A stretch of DNA of 45,917 nucleotides from assembly GCA_014750165.1 (NCBI GenBank), contig GCA_014750165.1_4319.1. One strand, written 5' to 3'. The notes beneath the pieces were generated by a model that saw only the letters and a list, made by a program, of their open reading frames with translations, was not told the origin of the DNA and searched no databases. This document shows positions 9,315-29,893 of the stretch, in pieces. Each line of letters opens with the position of its first letter. Position 1 is the stretch's first letter. A program made the position numbers and the translations under genes. This DNA comes from a phage.

Positions 9315-12300
9315 ATGGCACAAATGATCAAAACAAACATGGGGCTTTTTGATATGGCTGAAGAGATTAAGATTTATGGTGCTAAGGGTGGTAGCCAGAA
9401 GCAGCACCAACCAGTGGAGCAAGAAGATAACCTAATTTCACTTAACAAGGTTAAGGTACTGCTTGCGGTTGCTGATGGTGAGGTTGACCCTAATTTCTCA
9501 ATGAAGGATTTATACCTTGCTGACGTTCCGGTGCAAAACCAGGATGGTAGCTACAACTATGAAGGTGTTCGTGCTGAGTTCCGCGCTGGCACGCAGTATC
9601 AGGATTATATCGCTGGCCTTGATGGTGCTAACTCAGAGATTCAGGCTTCCAGAGAAATTACGAACGATACCCCGTACATCATTGCGGTTAACAACACTCA
9701 GCTATCAGCAATTCGAGTTAAGCTATTTTGGCCTCGACTTGTCAAGCAGGAAAGTAACGGTGACCTGAACGGTACAACATGCGAGTATGCAATTGACCTA
9801 TCTGTTAATGGTGGTGCTTACCAGGAATACACTCGCGGAGTTGCTAACGGGAAGACAACTACAGGTTACGACCGCAGCATTCGTATAAACCTTCCGGCTG
9901 AATTTGATAGCGCTTTGGTTCGTATCCGCAAGATTACAGCAGATTCAACAAGTAGCACACTGGTAAACGGGATGCAGATTACAACCTATCAGGAAGTAAT
10001 TGACGCTAAATTCCGCTATCCGCTTACCGCCCTGGTTTATGTTGAGTTTGGTTCTGACTTGTTCCCTAACGGAATCCCGACAATCTCAATCAAGAAGCGC
10101 TGGAAGTTAATTCAGGTTCCTACAAACTACGACCCGGAGACAAGAACTTACAGCGGGACATGGAATGGCCTTTTCAAAATGGCGTGGTCAAATAACCCGG
10201 CATGGGTTTTATATGACTTAGTAACAAACCGACGTTACGGACTTGACCAAAGAGAATTGGGTGTAGAGATTGATAAGTGGGGTCTTTACGAAGCTGCGCA
10301 ATTTTGTGACCAGATGGTTCCTGATGGTAAGGGTGGAATGGAGCCGCGCTACCTGTGCGATATGGTTGTGCAGAACAAGGTTGAGGCTTACACGCTAATT
10401 CGTGATATCTGCTCAATCTTCCGTGGCCTGACTTTCTATGACGGCGAAAAGATTGGTATCGTGGTTGATAAGCCTCGCAATCCATCTTACATTTTCACAA
10501 ATGATAACGTTGTAAACGGATTATTCAGCCGCACCTTTGCCAGTGACAAGAGTCTTTACACTACCGCAAACGTCCAGTTTGATGATGTAGAGAACAACTA
10601 TCAACAAGATGTAGAGCCGGTATTTGAATTAGAGGCAACTCGTCGTTTTGGATTTAACCCTGTAGATTTAACTGCGATTGGCTGTACTCGCAGAAGTGAA
10701 GCAAACAGACGTGGCAGATGGCTCCTAAAAACCAACCTGAGAAGCGAAACTATCAGCTTCACTACCGGGTTGGAGGGTATGATTCCGATGATTGGCGAGG
10801 TGATTGCGGTTAATGACGCGGCATGGTCTAGCAACTATCAGTTAAACCTTTCAGGTCGTATTGAATCAGTTCAGGGATTGCAGGCTTTTACCCCGTTCAA
10901 AGTTGACGCAGCGCCGGGTGACAGAATTCTTCTGAACAAGCCAGACGGCAGCCCAGAGGCAAGAACTATTGCCAGCGTTTCGGAGGATGGTAGAACAATC
11001 AACCTTAACACTGCTTTCAGCTTTGTAGCTCAGCCTGATACTGTATTCGCAATCGATAAGGATAATCTGGCGCTTCAGCAGTATGTTGTGACCGGGATTC
11101 AAAAAGCAGATACTGACGGCTCAGATTCATTCCAGTATACGATTACCGCGGTGGAGTATGACCCTAACAAGTATGACGAGATTGACTACGGCGTTAACAT
11201 CGTTGATCGTCCGACTTCAATCGTAGAGCCTGACAGATTGTCGCCGCCTGAGAATTTAACAGTGTCAAGCTACAGTAAGGTTGTTCAGGGCTTGTCAGTC
11301 GAGACGATGGTAATTGGCTGGGACAAGGCTCCATACGCTAAAACATACAATATTCAGTGGAGGAAAGAAAATGGTAACTGGATTAACGTACCCAGAACAG
11401 CAAGTACAGAAGTTGATATTGAGGGCATTTACGCAGGAATCTATGACGTTAGGGTTCGCAGCGTATCAGATACTGAAAACGTGTCTGCCTGGTCTAGCGT
11501 TGTAACGGTATCGCTAACTGGCAAGATTGGTCGACCTTCGGCGCCTACGGTTATCACGGCTTCAACTGATGAGGTATTTGGCATCCGTGTTAAGTGGGGT
11601 TTCCCTGAGGGTTCTGGTGACACTGCTTACACCGAACTTCAGCAGGTTCCAGATAATGGTGATGGTACTTACAATGCTGATAACGCGAGCTTACTTACGC
11701 TGCTTCCGTATCCGGCGTATGAATACTGGCACACGCCAATTCAGCCAGGCAAGGTGATTTGGTATCGCGCAAGATTGATTGACAGAATCGGTAACACATC
11801 TGATTGGTCTAATTTCGCAAGAGGCATGAGTACTGACGATGCCAACATTATCAATGATTACATCAAGGTTGATATTGAAGGTTCTGAAGGATTCAAATAT
11901 CTCGAGCAGAATGCGATTCAAAAGAATCAGGACATTCAGAATCAGGCAGAATCAATTCTCGAGAACGCATTAGCTAATGATACTGATGTTCGCCGCATGA
12001 CAAGGGAGAACGGCAAACGCAAGGCTGAATATGTTCAGGCAGTGAATCTAATAGCTGATGAAACTCAGGCGCGAGTAGAGGCTCTCACAGCTCTTAAGGC
12101 GCAGATAGATGATGAAGTTGTAGCATCGATTACAGAAGTTCAGACAGCTCTAGCAACTGAGACGGAAGCAAGAACTACTGCAGACACGGCTCTATCAGCA
12201 AGATTGGGTGATAACGAGGCGGCCATAAACCAGAAGTTAGACGCATTCTCCAATGCGACATCTACTGGCGTGCAATACGGAATCAGTTTAGGTCTTAAAT

Positions 12301-14044: not shown

Positions 14045-14065
14045 TTTAGCAATTAGTGCTATTCG
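14045..14065 (-). promoter_or_regulatory. gene-boundary palindrome cassette (minus orientation), upstream of cor-like gene
   Basis: Reverse complement reads GAATAGCACTAATTGCTAAA then CGCAAGG..TGCG hairpin, TACTAT, CATCGAAACGA; also supplies stop of the MTase-like gene. Confidence 0.5.
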
Positions 14066-14735
14066 CCAAAAATACAGCTCTTGCAAATCCACGAGGTGTA
14101 AGACTGCGAATTACCTTTGTTTTCTTGCTCTTCCCGCCTAGCTTCTTGTGCTGGTCTGAGTATCCATCATTAACGTCAACTGGTGAGGCATGAGGCCATT
14201 TAAACCCATTGCCAGACCAAATGCACGTCTTCTTAGGATATGCGTCTCTTGGCTTTATTAGGTCGCTAAAAAACGGGTGTAAATCATCTTCCGGCAAATA
14301 GCCTCCGTATTCGTAAGGGTGAAACGTGTTATCAGGTTTACGCCAGAGCGATGACAGCACGCTGACTGGGTTCTCAATCATGTATGGAACTCCGTATTTT
14401 TCAGCCAGTTTAAAAGCAACCTTGCAAGTCTCTGCCGCCTCAATTTGGAAGTTTTGGTTGGCTAGGCGCTTACGCTCAAAGTGTGCTGCCCCGCTCACGG
14501 CTAAATCCGTACAGGGCGGGAATGCCATGATAAAATCAGGCTTCACATCAAAATCAAAACTGGAATCTATCCAGGCGTTAACGTATGTAATGTTCTCATG
14601 TTCAACTCTTGCGTTTAAGTAGCTATAGCTCCCGTGGTCAGACTCATCAAAGTTGAAGCAGTAGCAAGTGTGACCAGCTTCAGCCCAATCCTTCACAGCT
14701 AGACCAGAACCATCAAATAAAGACCAGATAACTAT
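14046..14735 (-). CDS. DNA C5-cytosine methyltransferase-like protein (divergent)
   Basis: Motif IV-like FPPCT and motif VI-like IENP in track ORF 14046..14696; motif I-like SLFDGSG is encoded in the same frame just upstream (to stop at 14754-14756), where no ATG/GTG/TTG exists; 14735 is a candidate ATA start 7 nt after GAGGA. Confidence 0.5.
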   Translation of the reverse strand: MVIWSLFDGSGLAVKDWAEAGHTCYCFNFDESDHGSYSYLNARVEHENITYVNAWIDSSFDFDVKPDFIMAFPPCTDLAVSGAAHFERKRLANQNFQIEAAETCKVAFKLAEKYGVPYMIENPVSVLSSLWRKPDNTFHPYEYGGYLPEDDLHPFFSDLIKPRDAYPKKTCIWSGNGFKWPHASPVDVNDGYSDQHKKLGGKSKKTKVIRSLTPRGFARAVFLANSTNC

Positions 14736-26783: not shown

Positions 26784-27920
26784 ATGGCAACTGCAAAAAT
26801 CACTAACGAAGAGCTGCGTGAAGAGCTTGCTAATGGCATGACAAACAAGGCAATCGCAGAGAAATACGGAATGAACATTCGCAACGTTGAATTGCGTCGT
26901 AGTAAATTGGCAAAGAGTGGAGAATTGCACGGAAACCCAGGTATCAAGAAGTTAGTTCCTGACGGTTATATGGTTAAGGGAACCTCCACGATGATTGATG
27001 CGGATGGTAACGAGAAGCTGCGCTGGGTTAAAACCTCTGTAGACAATGAGCGACTTGAGGTTTTAATGGAGCAAGCTCGAGAAGCATTTTGCTCTGATTT
27101 GCCAAAGGCTATTCCATCTGAATCACCGAATGTTAACTTTGATGATAACACGCTTGCGATGTATCCAGTTTTTGATTTACACATTGGGGCGATGGCTCAC
27201 AAACATGAGTGTGGCGAAAACTATGATACAGCAACAGCAGAGAAAGTAATGAATGGGTTCTTTGACTACGCTGTTGATAAGGCTCCAAACTCTAAGAATG
27301 CTGTATTGGTATTGGGTGGTGATTTCCTGCATTACGACTCTCTGGAGGCTAAAACCCCGGCATCAGGTCATATCTTAGATTCTGACAGTCGTTACGCCAA
27401 GATTGTTTATGTTGCAATCCGGTCAGTGCGTCGTGCCATTTCTCGAATGATGGAAAAGCACCAAGTTATTGAAATTAAAGTAATAAGTGGCAATCACGAC
27501 GAGGCAGGAATGGTTTGGCTCCGCGCTGCACTTGCTGCATTTTATGAAGATGAGCCTCGCGTAAATGTTGATGTTAGCCCAGCCGCAATGATGATGACCA
27601 GCTTTGGAACGACGCTTATTGGATACACTCACGGGCACCAAATGCGGAAAGCCGATACTCGACTAACTGTTATGGCAACTGATTTTCGTAAGTTATTTGG
27701 CCAAAGTGAGTATGTTTACACACATAGTGGCCACTGGCATTCGCAGAAGATTACAGAAACAAACTTGGGAATTGATGAGGTTCATGGGCAGCTTGGAAGC
27801 CCTGACGCGTACTCCGCAAATGGCGGTTGGCGTTCTCAACGTCAAGCGGCAGTCATTGTCTACCATAAAGAATTCGGTGAAGTTGGCCGATTCATTTGTC
27901 GCCCTAAAATGTTTGGCTAA
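26784..27920 (+). CDS. HTH-fused calcineurin-like metallophosphoesterase
   Basis: N-terminal HTH-like TNKAIAEKYGMNIRNVELRRSKL; MPP motifs D-x-H (FDLHIG), GDxxD (GGDFLHYD), GNHDE, THGH, GHWH. Confidence 0.65.
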   Translation: MATAKITNEELREELANGMTNKAIAEKYGMNIRNVELRRSKLAKSGELHGNPGIKKLVPDGYMVKGTSTMIDADGNEKLRWVKTSVDNERLEVLMEQAREAFCSDLPKAIPSESPNVNFDDNTLAMYPVFDLHIGAMAHKHECGENYDTATAEKVMNGFFDYAVDKAPNSKNAVLVLGGDFLHYDSLEAKTPASGHILDSDSRYAKIVYVAIRSVRRAISRMMEKHQVIEIKVISGNHDEAGMVWLRAALAAFYEDEPRVNVDVSPAAMMMTSFGTTLIGYTHGHQMRKADTRLTVMATDFRKLFGQSEYVYTHSGHWHSQKITETNLGIDEVHGQLGSPDAYSANGGWRSQRQAAVIVYHKEFGEVGRFICRPKMFG

Positions 27921-27940
27921 TAGCGCTTTTTGTTAAAACG
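27919..27940 (+). promoter_or_regulatory. gene-boundary palindrome cassette, variant
   Basis: AATAGCGCTTTTTGTTAAAACG then ATACCCGC..GCGGGTAT hairpin, ATCGAAACGG. Confidence 0.4.
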
Positions 27941-27992
27941 ATACCCGCGAAAGCGGGTATTATTGTTTTATCGAAACGGCAGGGGGATTGAA

Positions 27993-28485
27993 ATGAATTG
28001 GCATGATTTTTTTATACTATAAGGATGGAAAGGTTTTCTGGAGAGATCCGCACTGCACGAGATTGAAGCCAGGTGATGAGGCTGGTAGTAGGCACCATAG
28101 GGGTTATTGGTATATTCGTAGATATGACAAAACAATGTCAAGGCACCGAATCGTATGGGAGATGCACAACGGAACAATACCAGACGGTATGGAGATAGAT
28201 CATATAAATCACGTGCCTGGTGATGACAGAATTGAAAACCTAAGAATGGTCACAAGAAGGCAAAACAATCAAAACAAAAAATTAAATGAAAGAAATACAA
28301 GCGGACACGTCGGGGTTAGCTGGAACAAGAAGACAAACAAATGGAGAGCAATGATAGGCATAAGGGGAGAGGACGGAAAGAGGAAAACTTTATACGTTTA
28401 TTATGGTGATTCTTTCGATGATGCGGTATCAGCAAGAAAGAAAGCAGAGGCTGAGCACTCGTTTCATGAAAATCACGGTAAATAG
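27993..28485 (+). CDS. HNH homing endonuclease, interrupted by frameshift at T7 tract
   Basis: ATG 27993 with strong RBS (AGGGGGA) encodes MNWHDFF then stops; HNH body (track 28003..28485) is in +1 frame; an 8th T would restore MNWHDFFLYYKDGKVFW, matching the paralog N-terminus MNWNEIFEYRDGKIYWK. Confidence 0.7.
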
Positions 28486-28501
28486 CACTTTTTGCCTAAC
28501 T
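28481..28501 (+). promoter_or_regulatory. gene-boundary palindrome cassette, variant
   Basis: AAATAGCACTTTTTGCCTAAC then ATGCCG..CGGCAT hairpin and ATCGAAACGA. Confidence 0.4.
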
Positions 28502-28555
28502 CATGCCGTAGAAATGCGGCATAATCACCAAATCGAAACGAGATGAGGAATTGTA

Positions 28556-29029
28556 ATGATTTATGTATTTGATATCGATGGAACTATAGCTAATAATGAG
28601 CATAGAAGCCACCTCTTGCCATCCAGTGACCTTCACTTGACTTCAAGTTGGAAGGATTACAATAAAGCCTGTTCCGGAGACTCACCAATAATTCCAATGA
28701 TAAAAATGATGAATTCTTTAGCTGAGTCATCTCAAGTTTACATAATGACCTCAAGAAGTGATGAAGTTGAATGGAGAACGCTTCAGTGGCTTCATGATAA
28801 TGATGTTGAGTATGATTCGATATACATGAGAAGTCGACATGACAACCGAAAAGATTACAAAATAAAAGAGGAATGGCTTACTGAAATCAGTGGTGGCGAT
28901 AAAAGCAATGTGGTTATTTTTGAAGATAACCCGCAAGTAATCAAGCACTTAAGGAGCTTCGGATATACTGTAATGTCAGTTTGCGAATATGAAGACCTAC
29001 CTAAAGACTGCGAATCTCACGGAGAATGA
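28556..29029 (+). CDS. HAD-superfamily phosphatase
   Basis: N-terminal DIDGT motif (HAD motif I, DxDGT); 157 aa; ATGA-coupled to downstream kinase. Confidence 0.6.
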   Translation: MIYVFDIDGTIANNEHRSHLLPSSDLHLTSSWKDYNKACSGDSPIIPMIKMMNSLAESSQVYIMTSRSDEVEWRTLQWLHDNDVEYDSIYMRSRHDNRKDYKIKEEWLTEISGGDKSNVVIFEDNPQVIKHLRSFGYTVMSVCEYEDLPKDCESHGE

Positions 29030-29031
29030 AA

Positions 29032-29586
29032 ATGACTAAATTATTTATCCTTAATGGCCCAGCTGGAGTTGGCAAGGACACTATAGCCGATATCATGGTT
29101 GAGACTGGTGTCGCCAAAGAAAAGGTATCATTCAAGTCACCAATGTTTAACGTTGTAAAAGGAATGCTATCAAGCGATGAATTTGATGGATTCATCAAGA
29201 ATTACGACAATAGAGACTATAAGGAATCACCTCATGGATTTCTTAGCGGTATGACAGTTCGTGAATTTATGATTTGGATTAGCGAGTCTGTAATGAAGCC
29301 AGTCTTTGGTGATGATGTTTTCGGTAAAAGGCTAGCACAGTCACTTGGTGATGGTTGCTACATTTGCGCTGACGGTGGGTTTGCTAGCGAGATTAAGCCA
29401 CTGATCGACACTGGTGTTGAGGTAACGTTAATCAGGTTGCATAGGGAAGGGTACACATTTTATGGCGATAGTCGCTCATACATTCACGGTGTGTGTGCAA
29501 GAGAGATTGATGTTCATGTTGTTGATGGTGATATTAATGGAACATCAGCATTGGTAAGGCACGTAATAAATAGCACGAATTGCTAA
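29032..29586 (+). CDS. P-loop nucleotide kinase (dNMP kinase-like)
   Basis: N-terminal LFILNGPAGVGKDT Walker A resembling phage deoxynucleotide monophosphate kinases; start set at second ATG by RBS spacing. Confidence 0.6.
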   Translation: MTKLFILNGPAGVGKDTIADIMVETGVAKEKVSFKSPMFNVVKGMLSSDEFDGFIKNYDNRDYKESPHGFLSGMTVREFMIWISESVMKPVFGDDVFGKRLAQSLGDGCYICADGGFASEIKPLIDTGVEVTLIRLHREGYTFYGDSRSYIHGVCAREIDVHVVDGDINGTSALVRHVINSTNC

Positions 29587-29588
29587 AG
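29568..29588 (+). promoter_or_regulatory. gene-boundary palindrome cassette
   Basis: AAATAGCACGAATTGCTAAAG, TATCAT, CATCGAAACGA; supplies NSTNC-stop tail of kinase. Confidence 0.5.
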
Positions 29589-29654
29589 ATAATATTAAAA
29601 ACTGGGTTATCATTAACACATCGAAACGAGATGAACCAAACGAGGAAAAACAAA

Positions 29655-29831
29655 ATGACTAAAATGATTTACTGCACCAAGAACAACTCCAAGACGCTTC
29701 CATTTACAGTTAACCAGCCGTATAGCGCAGAGTACCAGGGCGATGGATACTACAAGATTTATGGCGACGATATGACGCACATCTTAGCGCCGATTGATGG
29801 TTCGTTAGTTGAATTTATTGTCGCTGACTAG
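29655..29831 (+). CDS. hypothetical protein
   Basis: Internal start MTKMIYCTK after RBS; track N-extension overlaps cassette. Confidence 0.4.
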   Translation: MTKMIYCTKNNSKTLPFTVNQPYSAEYQGDGYYKIYGDDMTHILAPIDGSLVEFIVAD

Positions 29832-29865
29832 CGCATAAAAAACATAGCGTTACGAACGGGGAGCC

Positions 29866-29893
29866 TTTTGGCTCCCTTTTTTTATGCTTCTTT
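29866..29893 (+). terminator. rho-independent terminator
   Basis: GGGGAGCC-TTTT-GGCTCCC hairpin plus T7 run. Confidence 0.55.

Follow-up and report, generated by a model that had tools for sequence, protein, structure and literature searches.

We analysed a 45,917-nt stretch of phage DNA (GenBank assembly GCA_014750165.1, contig GCA_014750165.1_4319.1), called the window here, in which a gene for a HAD-type phosphatase (HAD) stands directly ahead of a gene for a P-loop deoxynucleoside monophosphate (dNMP) kinase (DNK) on the same strand. Both open reading frames (ORFs), singled out in a preliminary description of the sequence, were confirmed: the HAD ORF (28556-29029, +) encodes a protein of 157 amino acids (aa) that starts MIYVFDIDGTIANNEHR and carries its DxDGT motif at residues 6-10 (FDIDGT), and the kinase ORF (29026-29586, +) encodes 186 aa with the P-loop LNGPAGVGKDT, in which K17 is the Walker A lysine. 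The two are real genes and not chance ORFs, because each protein has database homologs with E < 1e-90 and strong family matches (PF25109 and phrog_415 for the HAD, phrog_139 for the kinase).

The two genes had been described as overlapping by ATGA. This tetranucleotide is present in frame at 29026-29029, but a true 4-nt overlap is improbable, and the kinase probably starts at the second ATG (29032). The latter is the start of the annotated coding sequences in phages ACG-M12 and OzMSK and of the characterised kinase of phage Rao1 (R1DNK); near homologs are 184 aa long, and GGAG at 29020-29023 has a spacing that suits it. For the HAD, GAGG lies 7 nt upstream of the ATG. The junction probably consists of the HAD stop codon, 2 nt and the kinase start codon, so that the ribosome-binding site of the kinase would lie within the HAD gene. 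With a start at 29032, tight coupling remains, though likely without true overlap. Coordinates of these genes, of their neighbours and of two natural fusion genes described below are collected in Table 1.

Table 1. Features at and around the HAD-DNK locus of the window, and HAD-DNK fusion genes found on metagenomic contigs.
Feature	Position	Strand	Family matches
Helix-turn-helix (HTH) plus calcineurin-type metallophosphoesterase (MPE), T1 gp16 / Rao1 gp56 family, annotated "DNA repair exonuclease"	26784-27920	+	phrog_704 9e-156; weak Pfam Metallophos match
Repeated intergenic element, copy 1, exo/HNH junction; ATCGAAACG leader; terminator-like hairpin 27940-27961	27917-28002	+	
HNH homing endonuclease, HNH_3 plus AP2-like	28003-28485	+	PF13392 1e-20; phrog_99
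Repeated intergenic element, copy 2, HNH/HAD junction; holds the HAD ribosome-binding site	28479-28555	+	
Stand-alone HAD phosphatase, predicted T4 Pnkp / Pnkp1 3'-phosphatase clade, 157 aa	28556-29029	+	
Predicted dNMP kinase (DNK), 184 aa from the likely start; further in-frame ATG at 29026	29032-29586	+	
Repeated intergenic element, copy 3, DNK/DUF7244 junction; 5' part codes the ...NSTNC C-terminus of DNK	29567-29654	+	
Small DUF7244 gene (T1 gp14 / rtp62 family)	29655-29831	+	PF23896 9e-29
Hairpin and T-run resembling an intrinsic terminator, ahead of the holin gene	29858-29877	+	
Natural HAD_PNKP-DNK fusion genes in metagenomic phage contigs (the L095 span also takes in the downstream MPE gene)	L095 6001-8500; L096 498-1883		

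Residues 1-174 of the kinase match phrog_139 ("deoxynucleoside monophosphate kinase") at 2e-41, and GPAGVGKDT occupies residues 11-19; Pfam and NCBIfam recognise the protein as a P-loop protein only. It is 76% identical to R1DNK (Rao1 gp58), an enzyme that phosphorylates dAMP, dGMP and dCMP efficiently, and dTMP too, and whose function is abolished by the K15A substitution (bioRxiv 10.1101/2024.12.20.629578). Together with KomA and host Ndk, R1DNK makes dITP, which triggers the defence system Kongming; Rao1 mutants that escape Kongming carry M45T, R61Q, L136P or E158G in R1DNK, and the DNKs of the Drexlerviridae phages VAC2 and KarlJaspers (Bas06), of the same kinase family, trigger Kongming too (bioRxiv 10.1101/2024.12.20.629578). 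K15, M45, R61, L136 and E158 of R1DNK are all conserved in the window kinase, as K17, M47, R63, L138 and E160. By orthology to R1DNK, the window P-loop protein is thus predicted to be a broad-specificity dNMP kinase, already known in kind, and the earlier suggestion of a dNMP kinase reshaping the nucleotide pool was right for this half of the pair.

Structural comparison placed the kinase in the same group. The model has a T4 gp1-like fold, and its top fold match was the T4 gp1 dNMP kinase (PDB 1dek); T4 polynucleotide kinase (Pnk; PDB 1ltq), which is present in the structure library, was not among its top 60 fold matches, and no Pfam or PHROG match of the kinase to Pnk kinase domains was obtained. 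T4 gp1 carries the same GxGKDT P-loop signature, yet the two proteins are only 17% identical, a relationship that is undetectable by hidden Markov model (HMM) search against PDB sequences, and their chain lengths differ (240 residues in 1dek, 184 aa in the window kinase). T4 gp1 accepts dGMP, dTMP and hm-dCMP; unlike that range, the substrates of R1DNK include dAMP and dCMP.

The HAD matches Pfam HAD_PNKP (PF25109) with 63.1 bits, against a cut-off of 27.6 bits, over profile positions 4-139 of 143, and phrog_415 at 2e-53. Its model has the HAD_PNKP fold, and its closest solved relatives are polynucleotide 3'-phosphatases. An HMM alignment to T4 Pnkp (1ltq) pairs D6/D8 with D165/D167, R17 with R176, D42 with D187, T65 with S211, R67 with R213, R92 with R246, D100 with D254, K104 with K258, and E123-D124 with D277-D278; T4 Pnkp reportedly tolerates Glu at D277 and Thr at S211. 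Because equivalents of all catalytic T4 Pnkp residues are retained, the HAD should be enzymatically active. Sequence and fold both point to membership of the T4 Pnkp / Pnkp1 3'-phosphatase clade, as a catalytically intact stand-alone phosphomonoesterase: the catalytic and architectural residues of T4 Pnkp (PseT; PDB 1ltq, 5uj0) and Capnocytophaga Pnkp1 (4xrp) are all conserved. The window pair differs from these enzymes in that it has no Pnk-type kinase domain, the partner kinase coming from another family; in its gene order, phosphatase then kinase, unlike T4 Pnkp; and in that no ligase partner was seen beside it. The ...SHGE tail of the window HAD also differs from the T4 dimer-interface residues. 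More generally, stand-alone HADs have a conserved C-terminal ...[SN]HG[EVH] tail (CESHGE in the window, residues 150-157; KSHGVE in Rao1; VSHGED in PPWS1; ANHGHD in ECD7), which is not found in T4 Pnkp and was modelled with low confidence.

Two features of the HAD bear on the size of its substrate. In T4 Pnkp, Arg246 and Arg279 are the proposed pair that grips the penultimate phosphodiester of a polynucleotide substrate. The window HAD keeps the former as R92 and has N125 in place of the latter, so that the arginine pair is incomplete; at the R279 position, stand-alone HADs and T5 Dmp have N, S, L or H, and T4-like Pnk has R. The HAD also has a 14-residue insertion after motif I, which is present in neither T4 Pnkp nor Pnkp1 and is common to T5 Dmp. 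The change from R279 to Asn and the post-motif-I insertion hint at a small substrate.

Experiments have established T5 Dmp and VPG01 Dmp as 5'-dNMPases that counteract Kongming (bioRxiv 10.1101/2024.12.20.629578), and phrog_415 takes in both of them (T5 Dmp at 4e-57); a Pfam scan of the two gave no match for either. The Drexlerviridae-type HAD profile scored 76 bits against T4-like Pnk (hhalign 99%) versus 18 bits against T5 Dmp (hhalign 94.5%). Direct similarity of the window HAD to T5 Dmp is weak (BLASTP 2e-4 over 56 aa; 21% identity in the 18-bit profile comparison), and the central insertion and C-terminal extension of T5 Dmp are missing from it. T5 Dnk and Dmp come from the same two PHROG families as the window pair (a phrog_139-type kinase and a phrog_415 HAD) and, as would hold for that pair, act on the dNMP pool from host DNA breakdown; the T5 dmp gene lies apart from dnk, whereas the HAD and DNK genes of the window abut. 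According to its description, T5 dmp acts ahead of the onset of phage DNA replication (bioRxiv 10.1101/2024.12.20.629578). The profile searches that the preliminary description had called for, to tell Pnk, dNMP kinase and nucleotidase families apart, placed the kinase in phrog_139 and not with Pnk, and the HAD in HAD_PNKP and in phrog_415, a family that also holds the T5 Dmp nucleotidase.

To judge whether the pairing is meaningful, we compared 82 kinase-bearing loci (80 IMG/VR contigs and two GenBank phages). A HAD gene lay upstream of the kinase, on the same strand and at a distance of 0-2.2 kb, in 70 of them, and the reverse order was never seen. The pair is also adjacent, stop and start codons overlapping, in Autographiviridae (Pantoea phage Nifs112, Aeromonas phage LAh3), and its order is kept in loci whose kinases share ~50% identity with that of the window, about as much as the Kagunavirus and K1ind1 matches do. 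Exhaustive searching with the kinase family profile returned 5,031 clusters, the best 150 of which included two HAD-DNK fusion proteins: P0299, of 403 aa and present on three contigs, and P0308, of 461 aa. In both, the N-terminal domain is HAD_PNKP and the C-terminal one DNK. Compared with the window proteins, the fusions show 40% and 42-46% identity; compared with each other, linker included, they show 37%. Downstream of its fusion gene, contig L095 has a phrog_704 MPE, a PAPS-reductase-like gene and a Dam-type methyltransferase. By tblastn, the HAD was found in ~1,500 phage records and the kinase in ~1,450. A conserved third partner between HAD and DNK was sought in Tunavirus/Webervirus-type loci and rejected, the intervening ORFs being small, unrelated or HNH. 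Comparative genomics thus indicates that HAD and DNK act together: their order is kept from one phage group to another, the two genes adjoin so closely that the ribosome-binding site of the kinase falls within the HAD gene, and natural fusions of the two occur. The coupled pair proposed at the outset stands.

The metallophosphoesterase noted 1 kb upstream likewise proved to be more than a local feature, as it recurs beside the HAD-DNK pair in other phage families. In 27 of the 70 HAD-plus-DNK loci, the gene directly ahead of the HAD encodes a phrog_704 MPE. The window MPE is 39% identical, over its full length, to ORF32 of Nifs112, which stands beside HAD and DNK, and 41% identical (hhalign 100%) to the MPE encoded directly downstream of the fusion gene on L095 (7340-8500); another MPE family, phrog_221, is found upstream of the HAD in LAh3 and PPWS1. 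The residues of five motifs (D131/H133, G179-D180, G236-N-H-D239, H283/H285 and G316-H-x-H319) are invariant in 14 homologs of the window MPE. Its N-terminus resembles a LuxR-type HTH; no significant sequence match of the protein to any solved MPE was obtained, and a PDB profile search matched the N-terminal HTH alone. We presume the MPE to be the nuclease of the module. On cleaving single-stranded DNA, an MPE-superfamily nuclease of P. putida leaves 3'-PO4 ends (PMC7826289), and gp48 of mycobacteriophage A10ZJ24, an MPE, destroys host DNA (PMC12287305). Compared with such binuclear MPE nucleases (P. putida MPE, Mre11/SbcD and A10ZJ24 gp48), the window MPE keeps all five motifs and differs by its N-terminal LuxR-like HTH.

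We propose, with moderate confidence, that the pair is a deoxynucleotide-pool module that salvages host DNA into deoxynucleoside diphosphates (dNDPs), with MPE and HAD steps. The MPE would break down DNA, most likely that of the host. The HAD would then strip 3'-phosphates from mononucleotide-sized products (3'-dNMP or pdNp) or, in a less likely variant, trim 5'-dNMPs in the manner of T5 Dmp. Last, the DNK would phosphorylate the resulting 5'-dNMPs (dAMP, dGMP, dCMP and dTMP) to dNDPs, which host Ndk would convert into deoxynucleoside triphosphates (dNTPs). As a side effect, the module would set the level of free dNMPs, which is read by host defences such as Kongming. We advance more tentatively, as a possibility open to considerable doubt, the wider idea that MPE, Pnkp-type HAD and DNK make up a previously undescribed three-enzyme pipeline from host DNA to dNDPs, mobile between phage families and sometimes fused, in which a 3'-phosphatase would be needed because the nuclease leaves 3'-phosphorylated products, and control of free dNMPs would decide visibility to Kongming and PUA-Cal-HAD.

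Several observations weigh against the salvage module. A DNK without a nearby HAD occurs in 12 of the 82 kinase loci, including that of phage DTL, and no HAD was found anywhere in the DTL genome. The DTL DNK homolog (L088 10075-10722; 48% identity in one continuous tblastn alignment, 10102-10647) is located in the early region, ahead of the terminase genes, where RefSeq annotates two short hypothetical proteins. Conversely, P7 (as pap), ECD7 and Drulisvirus have the HAD without DNK. The HAD-DNK partnership is therefore frequent, not obligatory. Two of the stand-alone contexts nevertheless belong to nucleotide metabolism and speak for the module: in the Krischvirus ECD7 (L085 2844-4477) the HAD start overlaps the nrdB stop, and in the phiKMV-like podovirus PPWS1 (L087 2816-4998) the HAD is flanked by the phrog_221 MPE and a dATP/dGTP pyrophosphohydrolase. 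In Drulisvirus the HAD lies beside endonuclease VII. Xanthomonas phage Elanor encodes a longer HAD-containing protein beside a DNA ligase, which fits end repair for some family members. Two suspected partners in such loci were discarded: PPWS1 gp30, a candidate DNK, is the dATP/dGTP pyrophosphohydrolase, and the IME267 gene upstream of DNK, a candidate HAD, is sigma-factor-like. The nuclease role of the MPE is putative, and this protein has no close solved relative. Both the substrate of the HAD and its 3' versus 5' specificity are ones that we infer, and the presence of T5 Dmp, a 5'-dNMPase, in the same PHROG means that the fold does not fix specificity. Finally, deletion of dnk from Rao1 had no measurable fitness cost in the laboratory (bioRxiv 10.1101/2024.12.20.629578), so salvage is not essential.

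Other assignments of the HAD were weighed against the same evidence. It could be a Dmp-like 5'-deoxynucleotidase that serves mainly in counter-defence: by depleting dAMP and other dNMPs, it would keep the phage's own DNK from feeding dNMP-sensing systems such as Kongming (dITP) or PUA-Cal-HAD (m6-dAMP). We consider this unlikely, although the experimentally anti-Kongming T5 and VPG01 Dmp share phrog_415 with the window HAD, the hhalign probability to T5 Dmp reaches 94.5% with the post-motif-I insertion in common, host systems sense dNMPs freed by DNA degradation, and phages that are nearly identical otherwise differ in whether they have the cassette. Dmp homologues are, moreover, reported to co-exist frequently with DNKs (bioRxiv 10.1101/2024.12.20.629578). 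Against it, Rao1 has an orthologous HAD (gp57) beside its DNK, yet is fully sensitive to Kongming, and T5 Dmp provided in trans rescues it; this sensitivity test is weak in both directions, as Bas26, which has a functional Dmp, is also sensitive. Somewhat less probable still is a stand-alone DNA (or RNA) 3'-end phosphatase that would restore 3'-phosphate ends for use by host polymerases or ligase when phage DNA is replicated or repaired and acts independently of the DNK, adjacency reflecting a shared early "DNA metabolism" cluster. The polynucleotide 3'-phosphatases closest to the HAD in structure, the retained R92 (T4 R246), the adjoining MPE annotated as a repair exonuclease and the family members whose neighbours are genes of recombination or repair (Drulisvirus, with endonuclease VII; Elanor, with RusA and DNA ligase) all speak for this assignment. 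Against it stand the loss of the T4 R279 equivalent that contacts the penultimate phosphodiester, the cap-like insertion, and the other contexts of the HAD, which are those of nucleotide metabolism (nrdB, dNTP pyrophosphohydrolase and DNK); the HAD-DNK fusions, and an order that unrelated phage groups have in common, speak for one pathway shared by the two.

The leading idea of the preliminary description was that the pair is a split polynucleotide kinase/phosphatase in reverse order. Such an enzyme would heal 5'-OH and 3'-P ends, for instance those made when an anticodon nuclease or another defence nuclease attacks. The HAD half does fall in the Pnkp phosphatase family, the combination of P-loop kinase, phosphatase and metallophosphoesterase domains recalls bacterial Pnkp, and in Nifs112 a DNA ligase lies just downstream. 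The proposal fails on the kinase half, which belongs to the dNMP kinase family: an ortholog is a demonstrated dNMP kinase, the best fold match is T4 gp1 with 1ltq outside the top 60, and neither Pfam nor PHROG links the protein to Pnk kinase domains. In addition, no ligase is annotated in the collinear genomes of Rao1 and DTL, though a host ligase could substitute. We therefore regard a split end-healing enzyme as very improbable. Two further links drawn at the outset did not hold up. The only methyltransferase (phrog_757; 14046-14696, -) is 14 kb away on the other strand, and, apart from this ordinary DNA methyltransferase, the ~25 window ORFs scanned contain no base-modification enzyme; since R1DNK acts on the four canonical dNMPs and no base-modification match was seen in those ORFs, non-canonical nucleotide metabolism is not supported. 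Two published cases were also dropped as parallels, because the phosphatase in the aRES / phage phosphatase paper is a Macro-domain enzyme and the PNK in the retron Eco2 paper is a reagent only.

Across 26.7-30.7 kb, the window is ~89% identical in DNA to Escherichia phage vB_EcoS_ACG-M12 (Drexlerviridae, Braunvirinae, Guelphvirus), and the locus is collinear with that of phages Rtp, DTL, OzMSK and SU57; the window phage is a virulent T1-like coliphage of the Drexlerviridae. At this site ACG-M12 has HNH, HAD and DNK genes, OzMSK, SU57 and FP have HAD and DNK, and Rtp and IME253 have neither pair nor HNH. The HNH gene is not at the window site in OzMSK, SU57, FP and PCEc3, which retain HAD-DNK, and DTL has an unannotated, related HNH ORF alone in the same junction (L088 ~1790-2300). 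The HNH gene is a mobile insertion between the MPE and HAD genes and no functional member of the module. Presence or absence of the cassette in close relatives may be due to the triggering of Kongming by DNK, and the pattern fits an accessory, exchangeable cassette in which a salvage benefit is traded against a defence-triggering liability. The cassette is mildly GC-poor (0.38-0.42 versus 0.42-0.49), which we judged uninformative.

Rao1, also of the Drexlerviridae, has the same locus layout as the window, with gp56 (exo), gp57 (annotated "polynucleotide kinase", the HAD), gp58 (DNK), gp59 and a holin gene. It differs in having a 49-nt spacer between HAD and DNK, said to hold a promoter, where the window has essentially none, and it is without the HNH insertion found in the window. 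Whereas the kinases are 76% identical, Rao1 gp57 is only 43% identical to the window HAD (window 28556-29586 compared with L084 37904-39056), which points to recombination or allele replacement within the pair and to mosaic histories of its two genes. The window HAD is also 45% identical to the HAD of PPWS1 (Autographiviridae) and 46% identical to that of ECD7 (Straboviridae).

A repeated DNA element accompanies the cassettes, its copies bounding HNH and HAD-DNK, one per junction; in Rtp, where the site is empty, just one copy is present. The element is laid out as a 14-mer box (ATAGCxC..TTG), a GC hairpin, a TATAAT-like hexamer and a leader, CATCGAAACGAGAGGAGA, just before the ATG. The 14-mer, ATAGCAC[GT][AT][AT]TTGC, occurs in 19 copies at <=1 mismatch throughout the window, against 1.3 expected, with its strand tracking gene direction and further copies at, for example, 2341-2405 and 41140-41204; the 15-mer leader CATCGAAACGAGAGGAGA has 4 occurrences against 0.11 expected. 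The element may act as a promoter/terminator unit, or cassettes may be exchanged through recombination at its copies. Its 5' part (29567-29586) is translated as the ...NSTNC tail of the DNK, of the homologs P0060, P0062 and others and of unrelated proteins or ORFs, and because it is translated into several unrelated C-termini, these tails are by-products of the DNA element.

Downstream of the pair, the DUF7244 gene is annotated as a 58-aa coding sequence in ACG-M12, OzMSK and Rtp and is kept with or without HAD-DNK; it is probably the final gene of the HAD-DNK transcription unit. After the terminator-like hairpin, holin, endolysin and spanin genes follow in this order on the + strand. Elsewhere in the window, Rfam and ARAGORN identified a tRNA-Arg gene (anticodon TCT; 38659-38736, +) just upstream of the terminase genes, and the Rfam scan gave nothing beyond this one tRNA. 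A PADLOC scan of the MPE, HAD and DNK gave no matches.

Overall, we read the pair as a genuine and conserved module of the nucleotide pool, not as an enzyme for RNA/DNA end healing split in two. Its kinase adds a member to an enzyme family characterised before, and its HAD belongs to a known family, with a putative role. Only the HAD-DNK fusions and the association with the MPE go beyond existing descriptions, and current thinking is not overturned, because the chemistry is conventional. The results do bear on annotation. Among the matches listed, many HAD genes are annotated "polynucleotide kinase", though the Drexlerviridae-type proteins examined have no kinase domain; this label of phrog_415 masks the T5 and VPG01 Dmp nucleotidases and spreads misleading annotation, while the kinase genes themselves are often annotated "hypothetical", "ATPase" or "ATP-binding". 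Carriage of DNK predicts sensitivity to Kongming, and the gain and loss of the cassette among nearly identical phages is relevant to the choice of therapeutic or laboratory phages. For the very common stand-alone Pnkp-type phosphatase, the fusions and the MPE neighbourhood give a concrete hypothesis.

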